From a virus, in IMG/VR virus record IMGVR_UViG_3300042520_001767, positions 1 to 64,000 of that record: DNA of 64,000 nt; one strand, given 5' to 3'. This document shows, piece by piece, positions 33,138 through 47,860 of this stretch; position 1 is the stretch's first letter; each line of letters starts with the position of its first letter. A model generated the notes under the pieces. That model was given only the letters and a program-made list of their open reading frames with translations, was not told the DNA's origin and ran no database searches. The position numbers and the translations under genes are program-made.

Positions 33138-36100
33138 TTAATAGTTTTTTTCATAATTACCATCAGCACTAATAATAACTGGTACTGATTGTATCTTTTC
33201 ATTATTATAGAAAACACTTAAAGTATAATTACCGTATTCAGGTAATTCAATAACAAATGTTCCCATCTCTGGTATTTCACCTAAAGCATATGCATAAGTA
33301 AATAAACGCCATGGGTCTTTTCTTTCAATACCATCTAATTTTACAATCTCTTCATATCTAGAACTATTTGATGGTGTTGGTGAACGTTCTATAGATAATT
33401 TTACCCCTTTTGTTAATAGTTTTTTTAATTCTTCATCAGTAATTAATTTAACATCATCTTTGTTAATTATATTTTCACTTTTAAGAGTTATATTAACAAT
33501 TTTTTTTGTTTTTGATTCAGAAATACTAAGAATATCTACATTTTTAAACCCAATTATTTTAGGTTCAGATGAAGAACTAATTGGAGTTTCTTGTACACTA
33601 GCTGGTTGTTCATTAGCTTTTACTTGGTCTATTTCACGCTCATTATTTTTAGCTTGGTCTGTTTCAAATGTTTCGATTATAGGGTCTTCTTTTGTTGATA
33701 TAACACCGTTATTTAAATACATACCAGTACTTGAGTCTGGAGTATTAGAAGTTGGTTTTTTATCTGAAATAAAATCAGCTCTAGCTTCATAAACACCTGT
33801 ATTAGCGTAATAATTAAATGATAACGCATTTTGTAATTTATTAATAGGTCCATATAATGATTCACCACCAATAAACTTGAAAGATAAGCTTACATTTGCA
33901 ATCATAGGTTGTACCCCGATACCTTCTGGGTTTAAATCCCAAACCAACGGTTCATAATCTATATTTAAACTATCAATAATAATTTTAGTATTAAAAAAAT
34001 CACCAACTCTTAATATACAAATTGGTGCCCTACCAAACGCTAAATTATTTGTTGTTTGTGTATCTGTAGGTCCTTGTCTAGTACATTGTTGTAAAAATGT
34101 TAATCTAGAATTTAAACCTTCTGGCGTTGTTGAATGGAAACTTGGATGGAAATATTTTATTTTATCTCTAAATCTATCAAAAATGAATTTATCTGTTTTT
34201 TTAAGTTTATCAAAAAACATAGTTTCATTATAAAATTTTTGAGTTATTTTTGTTGTTATATCCTTTTTATCCATTTCATATGTTGGTGGTGGTTCAGAAA
34301 ATTCTTCCAAAGCAGCACTTGCATCATATCTGAAGTGAATCTTAACTTTTCTATCTAATTTACAACCTAAAGTATCAGTTGGACAAAGAGTATTTCTATC
34401 TTTTTCTTTTACGTTTTTAGGACAAACTTTACATTTAGAATCCTTTTCTTTAACTGGTTCACTTTTCATTTTTTTGATTCTACTTTTTGCTTGCTCTGGT
34501 GTCCAACCAATAAAATTAGCCCATTCTGTTCTTAAATTTTCTACTACTCTATCAGCTCTTTCATTGGCTAATTGTATATTACATTCTTCTCTACCTTGTG
34601 GACTAGCATAACCTGTAACCTCAATAACACAATGTGGACATTTCTGGTTAATATATTCACTAATTAATATAATAGCTTGAGGTGAATAAAAACCTTTAAA
34701 GAATGAATCACCTACTGTTGTTATAGGTGCAGCACCAGTACCACCACTATAACTAAAATTTAAACCATAATTATGATTATCTGGCCACTCTCTATGTATA
34801 CCATTATTATTAACACATTCCGTTTTATATGTAAAGTTACTTGGGTATGACTTCAAACCATAACTATCACCACTATAACTTGGTGAATTATATACTTCAT
34901 AATCAATATATTCATCAAAATTAGGGTTTCCAGATGTCGAACCGCTAACACCGCATTCATATAATGCTGGTGTTTCAGCTTGGTCATTAGGGAAAAAAAC
35001 AAACATATCACCAGGAGGTATTTCCTCTGGAGGTGCCACTTTTTCTTGTGGTTTTTCAGTAATTGTTGTTATAGTTTTTGTTATTTGTGATGTTGTGAAT
35101 TTATCAGTCCAAATACTATCTGGTTCAATACATCCAGCCATAAATGAAGCAACATAATGGTCGTCTGGTCCAGTTTCACCTCTAAATGTATTTGTGTAAG
35201 TTGAATGGTCTACAATAATTTTAAACGATAATTGACCAGCTCTTTCAGTATTATTATAAGTATACATATTTTCACCTCTACCAATGAATTTATGTGATTC
35301 CCAATCAACACTAGTTGATTCACTGAATTGAATATCATATGGAGGAAACCACATAATTCTACCTTGTTTACCAGTTATTGGGTCGCCTGGACCTAATTCA
35401 CCTTTAGGTAGCATTTCTTTTCTATCAAACCAAGCTAAGTTTTCAATAGAAAGCATGTAATTTTTAACATTTCTTGGTACATCTTTATTTAAGAAATCAT
35501 TTGTATATGGTGCTATATGTACAAAACCAGTATCTTCTAATACTGAATTTTCAGTATTGAATCTAAATGGTAATTTTCCACTATCTTTTGTGTATAAACT
35601 ATCATTTCTAACTAATTTAGAGATAGAATCGTATCTACCGATTGTTGTCCAACTTCTACAATATGTTTCGTCAGCTGTTTTTGCTATTTTATTCCATTCC
35701 CCAGGTGAACTTTTTTCACCAGTTTGTGGGTTTGTATAACCAAACATATCTGCGGACATAACAGCATTACCTTTAGAAAACCCTTTACCATTTGCTTGTG
35801 TAATTTGTGATGAATTTTTATTCATATCACCTTTTGCTGTTACAATATTTAACATACCGACACTATTAAAAAGTTTTTGTGTTTTTACTAATAAACTCTT
35901 TCTATTACCAGTTATATCAGAATAGTCATTATTAGAATTAACTTTACCACCACTACCACCATCATAACTACCCCAAGAAAATGCAACATCACTTATTAAT
36001 CTATCATCATAACCCTTATTACTAAAATGACCAACAAATTCTAATTGTGTTGGGTCTTTAAAACCATAACCATCTCTTCCAGTTACTTGTTCTTCTCTTA

Positions 36101-37756: not shown

Positions 37757-40351
37757 CTAACCTTTAGGTTTACCAGCATTAAATTGTTTTACCGTTTCTT
37801 CTTGTACCATTCTGGTTATTTGTCGTCTAAAACTTTGATTATTTGCAATATCAACGTTTATTGAACCACCTGGACTATCTAAGATTATTGTTCCAGATAT
37901 ATTAAGTGTTCCAAATTCATGTTTTATTGAACTATTATTACCTTTTTTCATTCCACCACCAACATGCGGACCAACTTCTAACCCATCTTTTGCGTGTGTT
38001 TTAGCCATTTGACCAAATTTATCTGTAATTGTAAAAGGTCCACGTCCAGGTTCTGCAATACCATCTTGCACTTCTTGTCGTTCACCAAATATTTTATCAC
38101 CTAACCAATCACCAGCCATACTTCCACCAACACCACCAGCTATACCTAAAGGAACTGAAGCAGCACCTAATCCACCAATAGCACCTAATCCACCACCGAT
38201 AGCTCCACCAATACCAGATAAAGCACCTCTACCTAAAGTTTCCATTGAAAATCCATTTTCAGCAACATCAAAACCCATACTAGCTAAAGCACCTATCAAA
38301 GGTATTCTTTTAAGTAAAGTTTTACTTAAAGCTTTTCCACCACCTTTAAAGGCTGAACCAGCCATTTGTGTAGCACCTCTTCCTTGCCTAATTAAAGATG
38401 TACCACCAGCTTTCATAGCACCTTTTATACCACCTTGTTTATAACCACCTTTTAATGATTTCATTGTTCTACCTAAATCAAAATTACCTCCAGGTGAAGA
38501 TGCACCACCTCCAGGTGAAGCAGCTGAATTAAAACCATTAGCTAAAGAAACACCATTTTTATACCATTTAATTGTATCCCACACACCACCTAATAATTTC
38601 ATACCACCTATTAAAATAGGCATTGCTTTAACAAAACCTAAAATACTAGCTGTCATTTTTGGGTGTTCAATAATAAAACTACCAATAGCACCTATTAAAT
38701 CACCAACCATTTTAGCTGATGTTTGTATTATTTCACCCCAACCACCTTTAGCGTTAAATTTCTCAACTAAACCATCCAATTTAGGCATCATCTTATTAAT
38801 TCCTTCAAGCATTGGTAATAGTGAGACCTTTAAGTTATCAATAAAGAAAGTTAGTTGTTCATCAAAAGTCCTGGATTGTTTAGCTCTTTCATCCATTGTC
38901 TCTTGTTGTGCTATTTGAGAATTAATTAAAGTTTTATCAGCTTGAGTTAATGATTTAACTAATCTCTCTTTCCCATCAAGCATAATTTTAGCTTCACCTT
39001 TTTTATTTAAAAAAGATTTATTAGTAATAAATTCTTTTATGGCTTCACCTTCTTTTCCACCACCAATAGTAAAAGTCATTTGAGATTTTATATCTTCAAA
39101 TTTTTTAGCATTTTTACCCATAGTAACCAAGTCTTCATAAGCAATACCAGTTTGTTCTGCAATTATTTTTAATTTATGCATACCCTCAGCTGCCATGTCG
39201 TACTCACCAGTTGATTTATTAAATGTAACACTTTGTTTTGCTGCGTTTGATATTTCCTCAGTTAACCCTTTCATATCATTACGAGCCATATACATTAAAT
39301 GAAAAGGGTCAGACATTTGAGCCCATGCACCACCCATAACATTTAACTGAGCAGACATCTCAACAGCTCCTTCAATATTCCATAATTTATCAGCAAACCC
39401 AGCCGCTGTTTCCATATCAACACCCAACTTAGTTACTAATTGAGCCATTTTAGCCAAACCCTTAGTACCTTCTTTGAAATTATATTTATTCATCAATTTC
39501 ATACCACCAGATACATTTTTCATTACCTTTGATGCATTAAGACCCATCTTGTGTGCATTTTTTAATGTACCATTAACAAAATCACCAGTACGTTCAGCCG
39601 AAACACCCATGATATCCATATCCGCTGCCATTTGTGCTGTTCCTTCGGCTCCTAAACCAGTAACCACTGACATTTCAGCCATTGCTGTTAAACCCTTTTC
39701 ATTTAATAGGACATTTCTACCTAAATTCGCACTATAATCCTCTTGTAATTTAGCTAATTTAGCAATACCAACACCAATCATTGTTGTTTGTTCAGCAACA
39801 TTTTTTATGGTAGTTCTCATTCCACCACTTTCTTTAGATAAAACACCCATGGATAAAGCCGCTTGTTTCATAGCTTTATCCATTTCAAATATACCTAAAC
39901 CTTTAATTTCACTACCAATACTTCTAAATAACCCAGGTAATTTTAAAGACATATCTTTTAAACTAACTAAAGATTTACCTAACGCCATCGAACTAACATT
40001 AACTTCTTTAGCTACATTTTTATATAAACCAACCTGTTTATCGATTAATTTATTTTGTTTTTCTAAATATTTTAATTTAGCTTTTTCAGCTTCTAATTCT
40101 TCTTTAGACATTGAAAGGACATTATTCTCAACATCTTTTAATCTTTTCCTTATATCTTCCTCTAATTTCTTAGTTTTATTATAAGTCTCTTGAAGTTGTT
40201 GTGCTTCTTTAGCAGCTTTGATATATTCATCATAACTACTATTCATTCGTTCCCTTAATTTAGCTTCCTCTTCAAGTAATCTCATAGACTCTCTTGCCGC
40301 TCTATTTAAATCTTGTTCCGATTCAATTTGTGATTTATTCTTTTTTGCCAT
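37757..40351 (-). CDS. Tape measure protein, 864 aa
   Basis: N-terminal coiled coil, helical A/G/M-rich body and Gly-rich hydrophobic C-terminal segments. Positioned between the tail chaperones and the baseplate genes. Confidence 0.75.
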   Translation of the reverse strand: MAKKNKSQIESEQDLNRAARESMRLLEEEAKLRERMNSSYDEYIKAAKEAQQLQETYNKTKKLEEDIRKRLKDVENNVLSMSKEELEAEKAKLKYLEKQNKLIDKQVGLYKNVAKEVNVSSMALGKSLVSLKDMSLKLPGLFRSIGSEIKGLGIFEMDKAMKQAALSMGVLSKESGGMRTTIKNVAEQTTMIGVGIAKLAKLQEDYSANLGRNVLLNEKGLTAMAEMSVVTGLGAEGTAQMAADMDIMGVSAERTGDFVNGTLKNAHKMGLNASKVMKNVSGGMKLMNKYNFKEGTKGLAKMAQLVTKLGVDMETAAGFADKLWNIEGAVEMSAQLNVMGGAWAQMSDPFHLMYMARNDMKGLTEEISNAAKQSVTFNKSTGEYDMAAEGMHKLKIIAEQTGIAYEDLVTMGKNAKKFEDIKSQMTFTIGGGKEGEAIKEFITNKSFLNKKGEAKIMLDGKERLVKSLTQADKTLINSQIAQQETMDERAKQSRTFDEQLTFFIDNLKVSLLPMLEGINKMMPKLDGLVEKFNAKGGWGEIIQTSAKMVGDLIGAIGSFIIEHPKMTASILGFVKAMPILIGGMKLLGGVWDTIKWYKNGVSLANGFNSAASPGGGASSPGGNFDLGRTMKSLKGGYKQGGIKGAMKAGGTSLIRQGRGATQMAGSAFKGGGKALSKTLLKRIPLIGALASMGFDVAENGFSMETLGRGALSGIGGAIGGGLGAIGGLGAASVPLGIAGGVGGSMAGDWLGDKIFGERQEVQDGIAEPGRGPFTITDKFGQMAKTHAKDGLEVGPHVGGGMKKGNNSSIKHEFGTLNISGTIILDSPGGSINVDIANNQSFRRQITRMVQEETVKQFNAGKPKG

Positions 40352-40354
40352 GTT

Positions 40355-41788
40355 TTATTGATTTTTATTAGCGTATAGATTAGCATCTGAAGTATATCCA
40401 GTTGAGTTTTTAAGTTTGATTTCTATATCCTTAGCTGGTGGTGTCCTCTTTATAACAGTTTTATTATCACCTTTTTCATCTTTAATTGTTTCTGTGTATA
40501 ATTTAACTATATCACAAATATATGTGTCTGGTTTTTCTGTTTTTTCTTTTAAAATAATCTCTATATTATTATTTATTAATTTAATATTAGATTCGTATTT
40601 AGATTCTTTAGTATCATCAATACCCATATACTTAACAGAATCTTTTCCATCATATAAAATACCAGGTGATAAAATAAAATTAACAATACCTTTTTCTGTG
40701 TTATATGGAATTCTTACTTTTTCTAAAACATAATATTCAATTTTACCAGATTTTTTAAATTTATCACCAAATCTAGTAAGTCTTTTTCTTTCATAATTAT
40801 CCATTGTTCTATTTAATATCTCTTTAGCTTTTATAACACCAGACGATTTAGGTCCTTTATTATCAGAGGATTTTGAATCTTTACTAAATTCATTAAAAAT
40901 TGATGCGAATATACTAGGTGATACTTTACCTTTAAAATTTAACATAGCTTTCTTAAATTCAGTATCTTTCTCAATATATTGTTTCATCTTTTCAATATCT
41001 AAAGAAGGTTCTTCTTCATTTTCCTTTCTTTCTGTATCTATAGGTGTATATTCTTTAATATTTTTAATCTTATCATTCCTTTTAATAATTTCACCATTTT
41101 TTGATTCGTAAGTTATCACTGAAATAGTAATAAGATTATTATTATCTATTTCAATTGTATTTATATCAGTTAAAATATCTATAGAATTAATGTTTACATT
41201 ACCTAATATACTCTCTGTGTTTTCTGATAATTCAAAACGTACTAAATCACTAGATTTATTAATAAAATCTAAAATAATAACTTCAGAATTATCATTCAAT
41301 TCTAATTTAAGTGACTCACCTTCTTCTAAAGTTGTTAATAAGTCCAAAAAATCAAGTTTACGTCTATCAACATTTTCAGAATTAGAATCGTAATTAGTAC
41401 CATCTATTATCTTACCATTTCTAGATATTGATATATCATCAATATTTCTTAGTGTCATTTTTTGCCATGTATCACCTTTAGGTGGTTCTTCATTTTTTTG
41501 TTTATCATCTTTCGCTACTTGAATAATTAATTTATCACCTTCGAATGATAATCGATTTAAAAACACTCTTTTATTATAATACTGACTGGTTTTATCTATA
41601 TTATCCATATATATTTGACCATTAAAGTTTTTAACTATTATAAAATTAAGCTTTTTACCACCTGTAGTAATTGTAATTATATCACTATCTTTTATGGTTT
41701 TATCTACCATATCAAAAAATGTTGACTCTAATAAAAATAATTTTAAATTTTTATACTGTTCTTCAGTAATTATTAATTTTTTATTCAT
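40355..41788 (-). CDS. Hypothetical protein with a K-L-I-I-T-E-E-Q...LLES N-terminal motif, possible internal virion protein, 477 aa
   Basis: ORF with an upstream ATATTTAT (41805-41812). The N-terminal motif is shared with 48174-48581. Confidence 0.55.
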   Translation of the reverse strand: MNKKLIITEEQYKNLKLFLLESTFFDMVDKTIKDSDIITITTGGKKLNFIIVKNFNGQIYMDNIDKTSQYYNKRVFLNRLSFEGDKLIIQVAKDDKQKNEEPPKGDTWQKMTLRNIDDISISRNGKIIDGTNYDSNSENVDRRKLDFLDLLTTLEEGESLKLELNDNSEVIILDFINKSSDLVRFELSENTESILGNVNINSIDILTDINTIEIDNNNLITISVITYESKNGEIIKRNDKIKNIKEYTPIDTERKENEEEPSLDIEKMKQYIEKDTEFKKAMLNFKGKVSPSIFASIFNEFSKDSKSSDNKGPKSSGVIKAKEILNRTMDNYERKRLTRFGDKFKKSGKIEYYVLEKVRIPYNTEKGIVNFILSPGILYDGKDSVKYMGIDDTKESKYESNIKLINNNIEIILKEKTEKPDTYICDIVKLYTETIKDEKGDNKTVIKRTPPAKDIEIKLKNSTGYTSDANLYANKNQ

Positions 41789-41854: not shown

Positions 41855-42139
41855 TTATGTTGTTGGTATTTCACCAGATTTCATTTTATTTTTCAACGCC
41901 TCACCAGATACTCTAGTTGACCGTTGACCTTTAGAACCTTTAGGGTTATTCTTAGCTTCTTCTCTAATTTTATCTAATTCTTCTTGTTTCTCACTTGCTT
42001 CTTTTGTTAACATACCTAAAAAGTATCTTCTTTCATATGTAGGCATACTTAATATATCGTTATAAGACATACCTTTTAACTTCTGAGTACAAATGTAAAT
42101 TTCTTCTAATAATGGTAACTTATACTCTGAAGTTAGGCC
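41855..42139 (-). CDS. gp51-like / gpT-like tail chaperone extension, probably translated by frameshift from the upstream gene
   Basis: Frame reads GLTSEYKLPLLEEIYICTQKLKGMSYNDILSMPTYERRYFLGMLTKE. The track start at 42205 is a TTG inside the upstream gene, and the first ATG (42070) falls within the conserved-looking part. Confidence 0.6.
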   Translation of the reverse strand, partial: GLTSEYKLPLLEEIYICTQKLKGMSYNDILSMPTYERRYFLGMLTKEASEKQEELDKIREEAKNNPKGSKGQRSTRVSGEALKNKMKSGEIPTT

Positions 42140-43481
42140 AAAAAAAGCTGACGTTAAGCGGAAGAAAGGTGGCAATAGACCCACCTCCAGGAGTCGTAAC
42201 CTCAATATTTAAATCAATACCGCTTTCTATTTTTTCAATATAATCATTCAAAGCCTTTGCATCACCAATTCTCATTGAGTTTGCGAATTCTCTAATATAT
42301 GTTTTATCTCTCCTCCCGTTAACCTCAACAAGTTGTTTTTCCATTTTATATGTTGCTGTATTATTAACTGGGACACCATTAGTTTTATCCTTATTTATCA
42401 TTTCTTCTAAAATCTCGATATCATTTATAGTTAACACTCTAAATTTAATATCTAATTTAGTTATAGGTAATTTATAATCAAAATAACCATCTTCATCTGG
42501 TTCAGCACCTAAGTCAATGTTTTTTAATTCATTTAAATTAATTTCAGTGTCAAATGGTTGATTAGCTTCATCTAATAAAGTAACAGGATACATTTCACCA
42601 TAGGCGGTAGCCCTTAACCAAATCATAATAGCATTTCTATCTCCAACTGTTAAATCTCTATATCTTAAATCTGGTTCTAGTATTTTTCTATTAATAATGA
42701 TTTCTAAAAATTCACCACTTTCTAATAAATTAGGACTAGTAAGAATATTCTCATCAGCAGTTGTCATATAAGCTAATTTAATATTAGCTTTTTTGTTTTT
42801 ATATAATTTTCCTTTAGAAGGTAACGGAATAACATCAAATGGTGCGTTATAATTAGGTTGACTTAATTCCAATATATAAGGATTTATATTTGAAGGGTTT
42901 TGACCATAATCAGTTGTATTAATTACTGGTGCTTGTAACGGTGGTGTTGGTGGTATATAATTATTATCATTATTAATTGACATACCTTGCGAGTTTTCAT
43001 TCATATTATATATTGGATTTGGTGTATATAACCCATTTTTAGTTTCTGGGTTTTGATTATTTCTACTTGAAGCTTGATTCGCTTGCTGTTGATATCTTTG
43101 AATATTCTCGTTATTAATTCTAATTTGTTCATCACGAAGTTTCATTTGTTCTTCATTTGTTTTTTGTGTCGAATTTTGAGTAACTACTCTAGATGTTTGT
43201 TTTTCAGCTAATCTGATATCTTGAACAACACCAACTTGTTCTATTTGATTTAATTGTTGTTGTGTTCTATTACGCATCATTTCAACAGCACTTGCATGAC
43301 CATTAACACTATAATTATCTGGCGCTTCATTTTGAGATGGTGGTGGGGTTTTAGATTGTTCGTAAATATAATTAGTAACTTGTTTTTTCTCAGCTTCAAA
43401 TTGTTCTTTTCTTTGCTCTTCAGTTAAACTAACTGGTGAAGTTGTTTCCTTTTTAGGGAAAACTTGTGGCTTTTTATCCAT
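42120..43481 (-). CDS. Baseplate hub / tail assembly chaperone (T4 gp26-like C-terminal half) with a long Q/N-rich N-terminal extension, 453 aa
   Basis: PFDVIPLPSKGKLY...MTTADENILTS...DLTVGDRNAIMIWLRATAYG...FFWP. Confidence 0.7.
   Translation of the reverse strand: MDKKPQVFPKKETTSPVSLTEEQRKEQFEAEKKQVTNYIYEQSKTPPPSQNEAPDNYSVNGHASAVEMMRNRTQQQLNQIEQVGVVQDIRLAEKQTSRVVTQNSTQKTNEEQMKLRDEQIRINNENIQRYQQQANQASSRNNQNPETKNGLYTPNPIYNMNENSQGMSINNDNNYIPPTPPLQAPVINTTDYGQNPSNINPYILELSQPNYNAPFDVIPLPSKGKLYKNKKANIKLAYMTTADENILTSPNLLESGEFLEIIINRKILEPDLRYRDLTVGDRNAIMIWLRATAYGEMYPVTLLDEANQPFDTEINLNELKNIDLGAEPDEDGYFDYKLPITKLDIKFRVLTINDIEILEEMINKDKTNGVPVNNTATYKMEKQLVEVNGRRDKTYIREFANSMRIGDAKALNDYIEKIESGIDLNIEVTTPGGGSIATFLPLNVSFFWPNFRV
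42140..42146 (-). other. Candidate programmed ribosomal frameshift site (AGC TTT TTT TGG, T7 run)
   Basis: Seven consecutive T on the coding strand, six codons before the stop of the gp26-like gene. The +1 (= -2) frame is open for 94 more codons. Confidence 0.6.
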
Positions 43482-44037: not shown

Positions 44038-45609
44038 CTATAACGATGATTTTTTATCATTTTTTGTATAAACCCATTTTTTATTACCACAGTCGTATAT
44101 CCTATTAACACCTCTTTCTTCCATTATTTTCGATTCAGATTTGTTTTTATCATACCCTTCTTTAACTAAAACATCTTTACGATACTTAAATCTATGTTCT
44201 CTTTTATGTTTTACAATATATGAATAATTTGGTTTTGTTTCATATAAAAAAACAAAACCAATATTTTTATAAATATCACCATTAAAATAACGATTATCTG
44301 AATATGTTATTATTTCTTTAAATTTTATTGTTTTAATAAAATGGTTGAATAATTTTGAAAATCCTCCAATAACACTTGTATTTATTTTATTAGAAAATCG
44401 AATTAATTCGTAAAAACCTTCATCTTTAACGCCACTTAAAACTTTTCTTAAATTACCAAATGTTATAATACTAACCAACTCATCATCATAATATAAACCT
44501 AATCTAATATTTGAATTAGTATATCCTTGAAGATGATTTTCATCAAGAAATTTACGACTATCTTTAACTGATACTTCTTTTATTATACATTTTCTACCAT
44601 ACACTACATTATCTGATAACCCTAATTTTGATTTAATAACACTTTTAACAACATCTTTTTTATAAATCCATTCATCTTCAAAAACATGTAATAAATCAAT
44701 TTTTAAATCTCTACATTTATTAGTTTTATTTAAATGATACTTATTATCTAAAAATTTATTCGAATGCCAATATAACCCATCAAATTCAATCGCTAATCTC
44801 TTATTTTCAATGTATATATCTAATTCAAGTGGAGATATTATTTTTTTAGTTTCTTGTACAATATTTTCATTTGGTAATAAATTAATTATGAAATCAGCTA
44901 ATTCTTTTTGATGAAAACTATCGCTTGAGTTTATTGGATTACAAATAGTACATGGTTTTATATTAATATCTGTTCTGTAATTAAATAAAGTATTATATAT
45001 TTCATAATCATTACCACATGAAGAGCAATTTAAAGTTATATTTGAATCTTCTATATCATATTTAATTAATTTATCAGATGTTTTTAAATCTAACCTTTTT
45101 AATAGATTATCTCTAGTTGTTACTTTATTTTTATTTGAATTATTATAATTTTTAAAACCATAAATTTCTTCTTTTGTTTTTAATGTTTTATTTATATTAT
45201 TATAATTTTCATCACCATATCTTTGTAGTTTAGTTTCTTTTACTTTTAAAATATGTGATTCATGTTGCGGATAATAATCAACACCAAACTTTTCTTTAAC
45301 TTTTTCTACAGCACGTTTTTGTGTGATTTCACTTTCATTAGCACACTTCATAGAACAAAAACTTCTATAACCCTTTGTTATTGAATCTTTGAATTTAACA
45401 TCATTATCACAATTTAAACATTTTTTAATCTCTTTATCATTATATATGAAATGCCAAACTTGTTGTTTAAACGGTAATAAGTTTAAATTATTACTATCAA
45501 TGAATTTTTTTAAATCATTATAAATTCTAGGCTCTTTATTTTTAAGAACGTCTTCTCTAGTTTTCCAACCAGATTTGTTATTTGTAGTAAAAAATTCTAT
45601 ATAGTTCAT
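44038..45609 (-). CDS. Free-standing homing-endonuclease-like protein copy 1 (Zn ribbons, PD-(D/E)xK nuclease, GNAT/Mom-like C-terminal domain), 523 aa
   Basis: CLNC...FCSMKC and CSSC...CTIC Zn motifs, ELDIYI...AIEFDGLYWH...FEDEW nuclease, and YELIRF...IGGFSKLF...ITYSDNRY...YKNIGF. Confidence 0.7.
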   Translation of the reverse strand: MNYIEFFTTNNKSGWKTREDVLKNKEPRIYNDLKKFIDSNNLNLLPFKQQVWHFIYNDKEIKKCLNCDNDVKFKDSITKGYRSFCSMKCANESEITQKRAVEKVKEKFGVDYYPQHESHILKVKETKLQRYGDENYNNINKTLKTKEEIYGFKNYNNSNKNKVTTRDNLLKRLDLKTSDKLIKYDIEDSNITLNCSSCGNDYEIYNTLFNYRTDINIKPCTICNPINSSDSFHQKELADFIINLLPNENIVQETKKIISPLELDIYIENKRLAIEFDGLYWHSNKFLDNKYHLNKTNKCRDLKIDLLHVFEDEWIYKKDVVKSVIKSKLGLSDNVVYGRKCIIKEVSVKDSRKFLDENHLQGYTNSNIRLGLYYDDELVSIITFGNLRKVLSGVKDEGFYELIRFSNKINTSVIGGFSKLFNHFIKTIKFKEIITYSDNRYFNGDIYKNIGFVFLYETKPNYSYIVKHKREHRFKYRKDVLVKEGYDKNKSESKIMEERGVNRIYDCGNKKWVYTKNDKKSSL

Positions 45610-45748: not shown

Positions 45749-46237
45749 TTAAAAAAGTAATATCGCTCTATCAAACCTCAAAGTAGCTGTAATCTCAGCA
45801 ATTCCATCATCATCCATTGATAAGTCACCAAATCCAACATTTGTTAACATTGTTCCATCCAACAACCATTTCTCAATAACAACACCAGTTGGGTCTAGTA
45901 ACTCTAACTCTACAGGTCTTTTATATCCAGCCGCATAACCTTGACGACCTGTAATAGATTCTGAGTGTAAACGTACCCATTCCATAATTGCTTGTGCAGC
46001 AGATGGACCAATTGGGTCACGAAATGTTACATCAATTGATTCCCAAGTAAATCTACCAATTACCCATGTAGATGTATTTAAAAATGGTATTTCAACTTCA
46101 TTCTGTGTGATTGAAGGTCTTGATGCAGATGATAACCACCATTGTTGGATTCCTAAATCTGCTGGGAAGGTAATTAACCAACGATTCTTCTTTTTCGGCT
46201 CATAAGGGAGCGGCATTTTCATTAAAAGGTCTGCCAT
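45749..46237 (-). CDS. Tail tube protein (T4 gp19-like), 162 aa
   Basis: YEPKKKNRW...SASRPS...GRFTWESIDVTFRD...LLDPTGVVIEKW...EITATLRFD. Confidence 0.9.
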   Translation of the reverse strand: MADLLMKMPLPYEPKKKNRWLITFPADLGIQQWWLSSASRPSITQNEVEIPFLNTSTWVIGRFTWESIDVTFRDPIGPSAAQAIMEWVRLHSESITGRQGYAAGYKRPVELELLDPTGVVIEKWLLDGTMLTNVGFGDLSMDDDGIAEITATLRFDRAILLF

Positions 46238-46312
46238 GTGAATTTTTTATTAATTTTTCTTGTTATTTATTTGTTTTTAAAGATAATTATATATACCTTT
46301 GATTATAAATAT

Positions 46313-47860
46313 ATGGAAATGGAAAATAATTTAAAATATAAAGATTTTTTTTTAAATAATAATAAATCTGGTTGGAAAACGTCTGAAAATAAATTAATAA
46401 AAAATGAAATTGATTTATATAATAAAATAATTATTCATTGTGAAAAAAATAATTTAACTGATATCACATTCAAAGAAAAAATTTGGTTTTTCATTAATTC
46501 AGTAAACACTAAACCAAAATGTTTAGAGTGTGAAAAGTTGTTAAAATTTGGTAAGTCTTTAAATATTGGTTATGGTAAATATTGTTCTTTAACTTGTACT
46601 AATAAAAATTCAGAACATAAAGAAAAAATAAAAATAACTAATAACATTGTATATGGTGGTAACACACCATTTTCGTCTAAAGATGTTATTTCTAAAACAA
46701 AAAAAACAAATATTGAAAGATATGGTGTTGATAATGTGATGAAGTTAGATAGGGTTAAAGAAATTTTTAAACAAGGTTCTTTAAATAAATACGGAACTGA
46801 ATTTCCAGCACAATCTAAAAATACTAAAATTAGAATTGAAAATAAATTAAAGTATGAAAAAATAGAAATAATTAATAGTTGCAATGGTTTATATTCTATT
46901 AAATGTCAAAAATGTAATGAAATTACTATATTTAATAATAATGAAATAAATTATAGATTTAGAATAGATATACCTATTTGTAAAAATTGTTTTAATTTAA
47001 AAAATAACATTAGTTATCCAGAAACTGAAATTTCAGATTATATTAAATCATTTAATATTAATGTAATCGAAAACGATAGAAAAAAATTAAATGGATTAGA
47101 ACTTGATTTGTTAATACCAGAATATAATCTTGCTATTGAATTTAATGGGTTATATTGGCATTCTGAAATATATAAAGATAAAAATTATCATTTAAATAAA
47201 ACACAACAATGCGAAGCAAAAAAAATTAAACTAATCCATATATTTGAAGATGAGTGGTTATTTAAAAAAGATATAGTAAAATCTAGATTAATTAATATAC
47301 TTGGTTTAACCCCAAATAAAATATATGCTAGAAAAACTATAATTAAAGAAATTTCACCTAAAGAATCTAAAGAATTTCTTGATTTTAATCATATACAAGG
47401 TAATGTTAATGCTAAAATAAAATTAGGGTTATATTATGATAATGAGTTGGTTAGTATAATGACTTTCGGTAAAGGTAGAATTATAATGGGTGGTAATTCA
47501 AACCAATATGAACTTCTTAGATTTTGTAATAAATTAAATACAACAGTTATTGGTGGAGCTGATAAATTACTTAAATATTTTATCAAAACATATCAACCAA
47601 AAGAAATAATAAGTTATGCTGATAGAAGGTGGTCACAAGGTGATTTATATGAAAAGTTAGGTTTTAATTTTATTCATAATTCAAAACCTAACTATTTTTA
47701 TATTAATCAGAATATTAGAGAATATAGATTTAAATATAGAAAAAATATTTTAGTTAAAGAAGGGTATGATATAAATAAAACTGAAAGAGACATTATGTTA
47801 GAAAGAAAAATATATAGAATTTATGATTGTGGTGCTAAATTATATAAATTAAATTTATAA
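46313..47860 (+). CDS. Free-standing homing-endonuclease-like protein copy 2, 515 aa from ATG 46313
   Basis: Same architecture as copy 1 (FFLNNNKSGWKT, CLEC...YCSLTC, ELDLLI...AIEFNGLYWH...FEDEW, YELLRF...SYADRRW...YDCG). The track start at 46238 is a GTG in AT-rich leader sequence. Confidence 0.75.
   Translation: MEMENNLKYKDFFLNNNKSGWKTSENKLIKNEIDLYNKIIIHCEKNNLTDITFKEKIWFFINSVNTKPKCLECEKLLKFGKSLNIGYGKYCSLTCTNKNSEHKEKIKITNNIVYGGNTPFSSKDVISKTKKTNIERYGVDNVMKLDRVKEIFKQGSLNKYGTEFPAQSKNTKIRIENKLKYEKIEIINSCNGLYSIKCQKCNEITIFNNNEINYRFRIDIPICKNCFNLKNNISYPETEISDYIKSFNINVIENDRKKLNGLELDLLIPEYNLAIEFNGLYWHSEIYKDKNYHLNKTQQCEAKKIKLIHIFEDEWLFKKDIVKSRLINILGLTPNKIYARKTIIKEISPKESKEFLDFNHIQGNVNAKIKLGLYYDNELVSIMTFGKGRIIMGGNSNQYELLRFCNKLNTTVIGGADKLLKYFIKTYQPKEIISYADRRWSQGDLYEKLGFNFIHNSKPNYFYINQNIREYRFKYRKNILVKEGYDINKTERDIMLERKIYRIYDCGAKLYKLNL

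Follow-up and report, generated by a model that had tools for sequence, protein, structure and literature searches.

A tail assembly chaperone gene on the minus strand of a viral DNA stretch (IMG/VR record IMGVR_UViG_3300042520_001767, positions 1 to 64,000; this whole stretch of 64,000 nucleotides is referred to as the window) is, judged by comparison with related loci, almost certainly subject to programmed recoding. A short product would be made from a first open reading frame (ORF1), and a long product would continue from the end of ORF1 into an overlapping +1 frame (ORF2). As the mechanism we infer, with reasonable though not full confidence, a ribosomal +1 slip of tRNA-Phe on UUU_U. The coordinates of the locus and of its landmarks are collected in Table 1.

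An open +1 frame at the end of ORF1

The 3' end of ORF1 reads AGC TTT TTT TGG CCT AAC TTC AGA GTA TAA and includes a run of seven T residues (T7) at 42140-42146. Read in the +1 frame, the same region gives GCT TTT TTT GGC CTA ACT TCA GAG TAT AAG and remains open through 41855. Skipping of one base, the T at 42140, after the Phe-Phe pair makes GGC the initial +1-frame codon and produces a 541-aa fusion (P0001), with the junction ...NVSFF-GLTSEYKLPLLEEIY... and 94 added residues. The open +1 frame spans 41855-42205 in all; upstream, only a TTG at 42205, within ORF1, resembles a start codon, and the first ATG in the ORF2 frame is not reached until 42070. The end of ORF1, the T run, the +1 frame, the start positions and the 541-aa fusion had all been described in the original prediction made from the sequence of the window, and all were reproduced. 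In the window, which has a GC content of ~25%, 133 T7 matches were counted against 156 expected by chance, and TTTTTTTGGCC occurs a single time. As the T7 run is thus unremarkable in the window, the case rests on comparison with relatives.

Table 1. Chaperone locus and landmark genes, in window coordinates
Feature	Coordinates	Strand	Remarks
Tail tube gene	45749..46237	minus	phrog_4542, E 4.7e-26; upstream landmark
ORF1, short chaperone form (TAC-N)	42120..43481	minus	453 aa
Q/N/P-rich extension of ORF1	42849-43481	minus	residues 1-211
gp26/gp51-type domain of ORF1			residues 212-447
PF12322 (T4_baseplate) match	42180..42812	minus	ORF1 residues 224-434; profile positions 13-204 of 219
Frame-0 end of ORF1			last 6 residues, WPNFRV; product of frame 0 only
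Predicted shift site, T TTT TTT GGC C	42136..42146	minus	in-frame Phe codons TTT TTT at 42141-42146
ORF2, post-shift part	41855..42139	minus	94 codons + stop; +1 frame relative to ORF1
Conserved ORF2 core, GLTxEYK..L.EEI....H..GF...DVY.MP...RRF	41990..42139	minus	~50 aa
Downstream hairpin	42077..42135	minus	begins 5 nt past the T run; left out of the signal
Tape measure gene	37757..40351	minus	phrog_167, E 1.4e-16; downstream landmark

Conservation of the break among relatives

Relatives were collected by tblastn of isolated phages (four groups) and by two scans of IMG/VR, which added 91 further loci of 28-94% identity. The comparison set comprises 95 related loci with 90 distinct junctions (28-100% identity). 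A blastn search of the locus against isolated phages returned no match. By tblastn, the same two-frame layout was found in Microcystis phage Mel-JY01 (junction AAC TTT TTT TGG CCT AAG TAA), Flavobacterium phage immuto (AGC TTT CTT TGG CCT ...), Listeria phage LIS04 (GAG TTT TTT AGT ACC ...) and Streptococcus phage GXN1 (GAA TTC TTT CGT CCC ...). ORF1 stops 2-6 codons past the site in all 95 loci, ORF2 lies in the +1 frame in every one of them, and this frame stays open for 55-108 codons beyond the site, barring two loci in which it is ended by the contig edge. The -1 frame shuts within 0-37 codons in most.

Selection on the two frames could be followed across the 90 distinct junctions. Upstream of a nearly invariant 12-nt block at the T run, the least-conserved position is the third codon position of frame 0 (0.18 bits), and downstream of it the third position of the +1 frame (0.39 bits, compared with 0.94 bits for the third position of frame 0). 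This switch in wobble pattern coincides with the block, and selection therefore changes frame exactly there. The invariant block reads TTTTTTTGGCCT in 71 junctions and TTTTTTTGGCCA in 9, and the site stands out from chance because TTTTTTTGGCC[T/A] is kept exactly in 80 of these homologous junctions. Codon choice at the site is equally skewed, with TTT at 173 of the 176 Phe codons of the site (78% TTT elsewhere in the same genes) and GGC at all 84 Gly codons in the first +1 position (6.8% of Gly codons elsewhere); the sequences share kinship, and binomial figures for these codon choices, which overstate independence, are indicative only.

If the T run held a homopolymer sequencing error, or if the gene were decaying, the true gene would be a single 541-aa ORF; homopolymers are indeed error-prone, and the fusion reads through cleanly. 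The identical break, however, recurs in the 95 loci, which stem from isolates and from independent metagenomes, and in the best 120 of 1063 homologous protein clusters from metagenomes. All of these best 120 end at the junction, each spanning 71% of the fused query, and no in-frame fusion into ORF2 was found among them. Both frames are moreover under purifying selection, each on its own side of the site, which argues against error and decay alike and leaves this explanation with practically no likelihood.

ORF2 might instead be an independent small gene, reached from an internal start or by re-initiation. Public annotation treats it so, as a 57-aa 'gp51' in S-PM2 and as one of two overlapping hypothetical proteins in Mel-JY01, and the TTG at 42205 and the ATG at 42070 offer candidate starts in the window. 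Among the relatives, however, ATG, GTG and TTG are all absent from the +1 frame ahead of GGC in 39 of 90 loci, and ATG is absent there in 79; the positions of those upstream candidates that do occur are not conserved. Nine loci are without an ATG anywhere in ORF2, and one is without any kind of start codon downstream. The GLTxEYK segment precedes every downstream ATG and yet has the codon periodicity of the +1 frame. Finally, in seven loci a +1-frame stop stands three codons ahead of GGC; together with the early stops in frame 0, these stops confine the shift to ~8 codons around the T run. An independently initiated ORF2 is accordingly very improbable.

The alignment across relatives that had been suggested as a check of the original prediction found the T run and the +1 frame conserved and, again as predicted, ORF2 without a conserved start. 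For practical purposes, this conservation excludes sequencing error, a pseudogene and independent initiation of ORF2.

One outlying locus (L086, 3200-3310) differs from the remainder in the position of its break. Its ORF1 stops early (GAC TTT AAA AAA TAA), 13 codons ahead of what is left of the usual junction (ATT CTT TGG GAT), and its +1 frame already has ..LPLNYQFFGITPEYK there, so that a +1 shift is still required. In this locus the shift site seems to have moved upstream with the +1 relation retained.

A probable ribosomal +1 slip at the T run

The frame of the product dictates that the mechanism be +1 or -2. According to the +1 model, most ribosomes would reach the stop of ORF1 and yield the 453-aa short form, and a minority would slip forward by one base with peptidyl-tRNA-Phe on an in-frame UUU that has U as its next base (UUU_UUU_U GG). 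This tRNA would re-pair with the overlapping UUU, GGC would be read next, and translation of 94 more codons would give the 541-aa form (...VSFF-GLTSEY...). In E. coli, UUU before a pyrimidine is prone to +1 shifting. Of the 90 junctions, 89 have an in-frame UUU with U or C after it; the outlier L086 has CUU_U and UUU_A. The T7 run is absent from seven junctions (TTT CTT T, TTC TTT T, TTC TTT C, TTT TTT A and one outlier), which are spread over the tree, include those of the cultured phages immuto, LIS04 and GXN1, and keep an intact ORF2. At the variant sites TTT_C TT (UUU to UUC), TTC TTT_T, TTC TTT_C GT and TTT_T TT AGT, re-pairing in the +1 direction is possible, as it is at every T7 site.

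A -2 ribosomal shift on the T run would lead into the identical frame with one extra Phe (...SFFF-GLTSEY...), and T7 does permit tRNA-Phe to re-pair two bases back. At TTT CTT TGG, TTC TTT TGG and TTC TTT CGT, on the other hand, the P-site tRNA would be mismatched two bases back, whereas +1 re-pairing matches. The original prediction had left both directions open; the +1 shift at the T run agrees with 89 of 90 junctions, and the -2 shift, a poor fit at the variant sites, appears quite improbable.

Transcriptional slippage is a third route to the same protein. Were the polymerase to drop one U on the U7 run, a minority of U6 mRNAs would encode the fusion in frame. Of the 90 junctions, 83 keep the T7 run, and with it the base that would go untranslated under a +1 shift (position 6, T in 98%); a few per cent of the long form may suffice, as with lambda GT. 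Against this stand the seven junctions with an interrupted or shorter run and an intact ORF2, three of them from cultured phages. Efficient bacterial slippage usually takes runs of 8-9 or more, and further in-frame T7 runs lie in coding sequence of the window, e.g. at 33993 and 34993. We regard transcriptional slippage as unlikely, though its probability is far from negligible.

Besides the kinship of the sequences and the prevalence of T7, from which the same protein could arise if one U were lost in transcription, several observations weigh against the ribosomal +1 slip. The frame-0 A-site codon is UGG in 84 of 90 junctions (UAC, AGU or CGU in the others), and UGG is neither a stop nor obviously starved. 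A conserved stimulator, either an upstream Shine-Dalgarno element or a downstream structure, was looked for among the relatives and none was found. The hairpin downstream of the window site (-26.5 kcal/mol, z -3.2) was found in the nearest relative, L006, and not in more distant ones; over 89 loci the mean z is -0.58, with 17% under -2. A conserved G-rich block is found no nearer than 35-39 nt upstream, too far away for a known Shine-Dalgarno effect, and it codes for conserved glycines as well. The invariance of GGCC, in turn, may reflect dual coding (W-P in frame 0, G-L in +1) and not a signal.

A more ambitious reading would take U_UUU_UUU_GGC_C as a self-sufficient phage +1 cassette, working without a stop, a Shine-Dalgarno element or RNA structure and with GGCC as part of the signal. 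The Phe-Phe pair would then have been re-set among a -1 shift (UUUUUUC, cyanophages), a +1 shift (the clade of the window) and gene duplication (T4). We put this forward tentatively, as a possibility somewhat on the doubtful side.

Family and predicted structure of the two parts

ORF1 matches PF12322 with 31.7 bits (E 1.6e-7), above the cut-off of 24.5, which upholds the earlier description of ORF1 as gp26-like, and it also matches phrog_150 'baseplate hub' (E 1.4e-8). The C-terminal half of the fusion covers positions 22-280 of the 282 of phrog_150 (44.8 bits), as compared with 19-219 for ORF1 alone (35.5 bits), a gain of 9 bits for the long form. HMMs (hidden Markov models) built for this analysis score T4 gp26 and gp51 weakly, at the right places, and an hhalign comparison of the ORF1 domain with the gp51 family was weak (E 0.026). 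PF28602 is a database label found on gp51 homologues.

For ORF2 alone, no match above cut-off was obtained in Pfam or PHROG, and BLASTP against T4 gp51 returned nothing. DUF6760 was considered and dismissed (E 0.04, under its cut-off). When a profile of 39 ORF2 sequences was compared with a 27-member gp51 alignment by hhalign, ORF2 residues 2-50 aligned to gp51 residues 204-249 with E 0.0012 and a probability of just 19%, which is moderate support; a common pattern (..Y/F S..D/S I..M.P.ER..) is visible by eye. Comparison of ORF2 with gp51 profiles had been suggested beforehand, and to this extent it bears the expected relationship out. The first ~48 residues of ORF2 would accordingly correspond, with moderate confidence, to the C-terminal extension of gp51. 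The description of ORF2 as gp51-like thus holds for this extension and not for gp51 as a separate 'T' protein, since gp51 consists of a gp26-like domain plus the extension. As the fused C-terminal half reaches the gp51 extension and ORF1 alone does not, ORF1 appears to correspond to gp26 and the fusion to gp51.

When the 541-aa P0001 was searched in full, neither PF12322 nor phrog_150 was matched, unlike with ORF1 alone or the fused C-terminal half. This is probably an effect of composition filters on the Q/N-rich N-terminus and the K/E-rich C-terminus, and automated screens of fused products should allow for it.

An AlphaFold2 model of ORF1 residues 212-453 reached a pLDDT of 91. In BFVD it matched baseplate hub (assembly) models of SP-15, CP220, ACP17, VH7D and others; E values were as low as 1e-25 and TM values as high as 0.9. 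Foldseek of the same model against the PDB gave nothing. Myosin light chains returned by a sequence-profile search of the PDB were set aside as chance matches. In an exhaustive VIA-align search with model residues 1-92, the top three rows were 3fgx (Z 6.1, rmsd 3.8, 82 aligned), YqbN (3klu; Z 5.2, rmsd 3.7, 82 aligned) and the HK97 tail assembly chaperone (2ob9; Z 5.0, rmsd 3.7, 78 aligned); they are mutually consistent, with Z under the tool background of 7-8. YqbN is an XkdN-type prophage tail chaperone. The ORF2 model (pLDDT 85) has three helices and, after them, a charged tail that varies; in BFVD it gave only weak rows, none better than E 0.18, to uncharacterised small ORFs of myoviruses.

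Two further features of the proteins were noted. The 211-residue N-terminal region of ORF1 looks disordered; it is missing from T4 gp26, Mel-JY01, immuto and LIS04 (208-290 aa) and is common to the closer relatives L006-L016, for which tblastn matches span the whole 453-aa ORF1. Two Cys pairs (CxxC-type, zinc-ribbon-like) are present in the domain in T4 gp26 and gp51, LIS04 and GXN1, and have been lost in the clade of the window, Mel-JY01 and immuto.

Comparison with T4 and the cyanophages

Two PF12322 genes were found in T4, as the original prediction had stated in treating gp26 and gp51 as products of separate genes. The two proteins (208 and 249 aa), which act in assembly of the baseplate hub, both match the family over its full length, and gp51 has ~48 extra residues. 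T4 gene 26 ends GAG TTC TTT GAG TTA CTA TAA, i.e. with EFFELL*, three residues after the same Phe-Phe as in ORF1, and its +1 frame is shut after seven codons. T4 gp51 passes the equivalent point in frame, and its ~48-aa extension is the part that aligns with ORF2. The PF12322 domain is therefore common to ORF1 and both T4 proteins, whereas the arrangement differs: T4 has two paralogous genes on opposite strands, without recoding, and their location is not between the genes for tube and tape measure. The Cys pairs, lost in the clade of the window, are kept in T4 and the Firmicute phages, and T4 is without the extra 211-aa N-terminal region.

LIS04, GXN1, S-PM2 and P-SSM2 have one PF12322 gene each, and a second copy was not found in the window. 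With a single PF12322 gene per genome, as against two in T4, the long form would have to come from that one gene. In the cyanophages S-PM2 and P-SSM2 this gene ends ...AGT TTT TTC GTA TAA or ...TCT TTT TTC GCA TAA, so that, as in the window, ...SFF is followed by little more before the stop (one codon in the cyanophages). They too have an ORF2 without a usable start, of ~57 codons and of the same family (..YSL.E.ENMMPWER..). In these phages, however, it is the -1 frame and not the +1 frame that is open, for 57 codons, behind a canonical T TTT TTC heptamer at the same Phe-Phe codons, whereas the +1 frame of the window follows TTT TTT TGG. In a quick tree, a branch with SH-aLRT 90 has the 90 '+1' sequences together on the same side; the '-1' sequences of the two cyanophages pair, and T4 gp26 pairs with gp51. 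No order of events was drawn from this tree because its branches are long.

Comparison with lambda G/GT and known +1 sites

A conserved frameshift is reportedly found in the genes that encode tail assembly chaperones in long-tailed phages, with lambda G/GT as the example. Work on it by Levin (1993) and by Xu, Hendrix and Duda (2004) is cited in PMC10274946. The window locus resembles it in lying between the tube and tape measure genes and in the predicted production of a short major and a long minor product with a common N-terminus. It likewise has an overlapping ORF2 without its own start and a shift a few codons ahead of the stop, at a site conserved in relatives. The model of the N-terminal subdomain may also resemble the HK97 chaperone fold, with the sub-background Z given above for 2ob9. 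It differs from lambda in the direction of the shift, which is +1 and lacks the X XXY YYZ heptamer of the lambda -1 site, and in the size of its products (453 and 541 aa versus ~140 and 280 aa). No sequence similarity of ORF1 or the fusion to lambda G/GT was detectable.

By analogy with lambda G/GT, the domain shared by the two forms would hold the tape measure or the hub, and the three-helix tail of the long form would recruit a tube or hub partner, with neither form retained in the virion. The lambda precedent and T4 genetics are the basis for assigning these putative roles.

Among known +1 sites, that of E. coli prfB is CUU_UGA, and those of influenza PA-X and the amalgaviruses are UUU_CGN, with UUU_CGU as one such motif. 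As at these sites, the P-site codon of the window can re-pair one base forward, and two of the variant sites match known motifs literally, CUU_U in the immuto type and UUU_CGU in GXN1. The family differs from the known sites in that its A site holds neither a stop nor a clearly rare codon, that a Shine-Dalgarno element is missing at 3 nt upstream, and that downstream structure is not conserved.

Gene neighbourhood

On the minus strand, the order from 5' to 3' is tube, homing endonuclease, 131-aa ORF, ORF1, ORF2 frame, 477-aa ORF and tape measure. The position between tube and tape measure genes given in the original prediction was found to be right, although direct adjacency was not, since the homing endonuclease, the 131-aa ORF and the 477-aa ORF intervene. 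In immuto and LIS04 the tube and chaperone genes adjoin directly.

Two paralogous homing-endonuclease genes flank the tube gene, at 44038-45609 (minus) and 46238-47860 (plus); the first is the one standing between the tube and chaperone genes. Both belong to phrog_3339 (E 1e-113), with a Mom-like C-terminal half (PF25680). The 477-aa ORF (40355-41788, minus) has no Pfam or PHROG match and is not at that place in immuto and LIS04. No tRNA genes were found in the window.

Discussion

Much of the setting of this locus has been described before. Passages of PMC10274946 and PMC12846349 credit the recognition of gp26 and gp51 as tail assembly chaperones of T4-like phages to Vladimirov, Gautam and Davidson (Virology 2022, 566:9). 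According to the summary of that work in PMC10274946, some T4-like phages do without a frameshift and have two chaperone genes, one short and the other long and fused, and PMC12846349, citing the same authors, mentions poly-T slippery sequences in short-form genes of T4-like phages. Chaperone roles for T4 gp26 and gp51 have also been proposed in PMC9024508. In view of these reports, as far as their passages go, the chaperone identity and the two-gene alternative are already published, and the link between gp26/gp51 and G/GT, which the original prediction had offered as a fresh inference, is credited there to Vladimirov et al. The window locus is a forward-shifting version of a known phage recoding device, the principle of which is published.

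The long form is unannotated in all public records inspected (PP395634.1, MW353176.1, OQ999172.1 and NC_006820.1). In this order, the records list two hypothetical proteins that overlap, place a 36-aa ORF within a gap, leave 230 nt empty, and give 'gp51' as a free protein of 57 aa. In metagenomes, the break is common to at least a thousand protein clusters. The hypothetical proteins are those of the Mel-JY01 record, the region is largely or wholly without annotation in immuto and LIS04, and the free 'gp51' is the ORF2 stretch of S-PM2 in GenBank.

In bacteria and the viruses that infect them, a conserved +1 frameshift is a rarity. The junctions collected here, with T7GG, TTTCTTTGG, TTCTTTCGT and TTTTTTAGT among them, form a large natural series of sites on which the signal needs of +1 shifting could be tested. 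One chaperone family would furthermore use three routes to its short and long forms: shifting by -1, shifting by +1, and having two genes. The presence of all three in one family supports the view that genes 26 and 51 of T4 are a G/GT pair that has been split.

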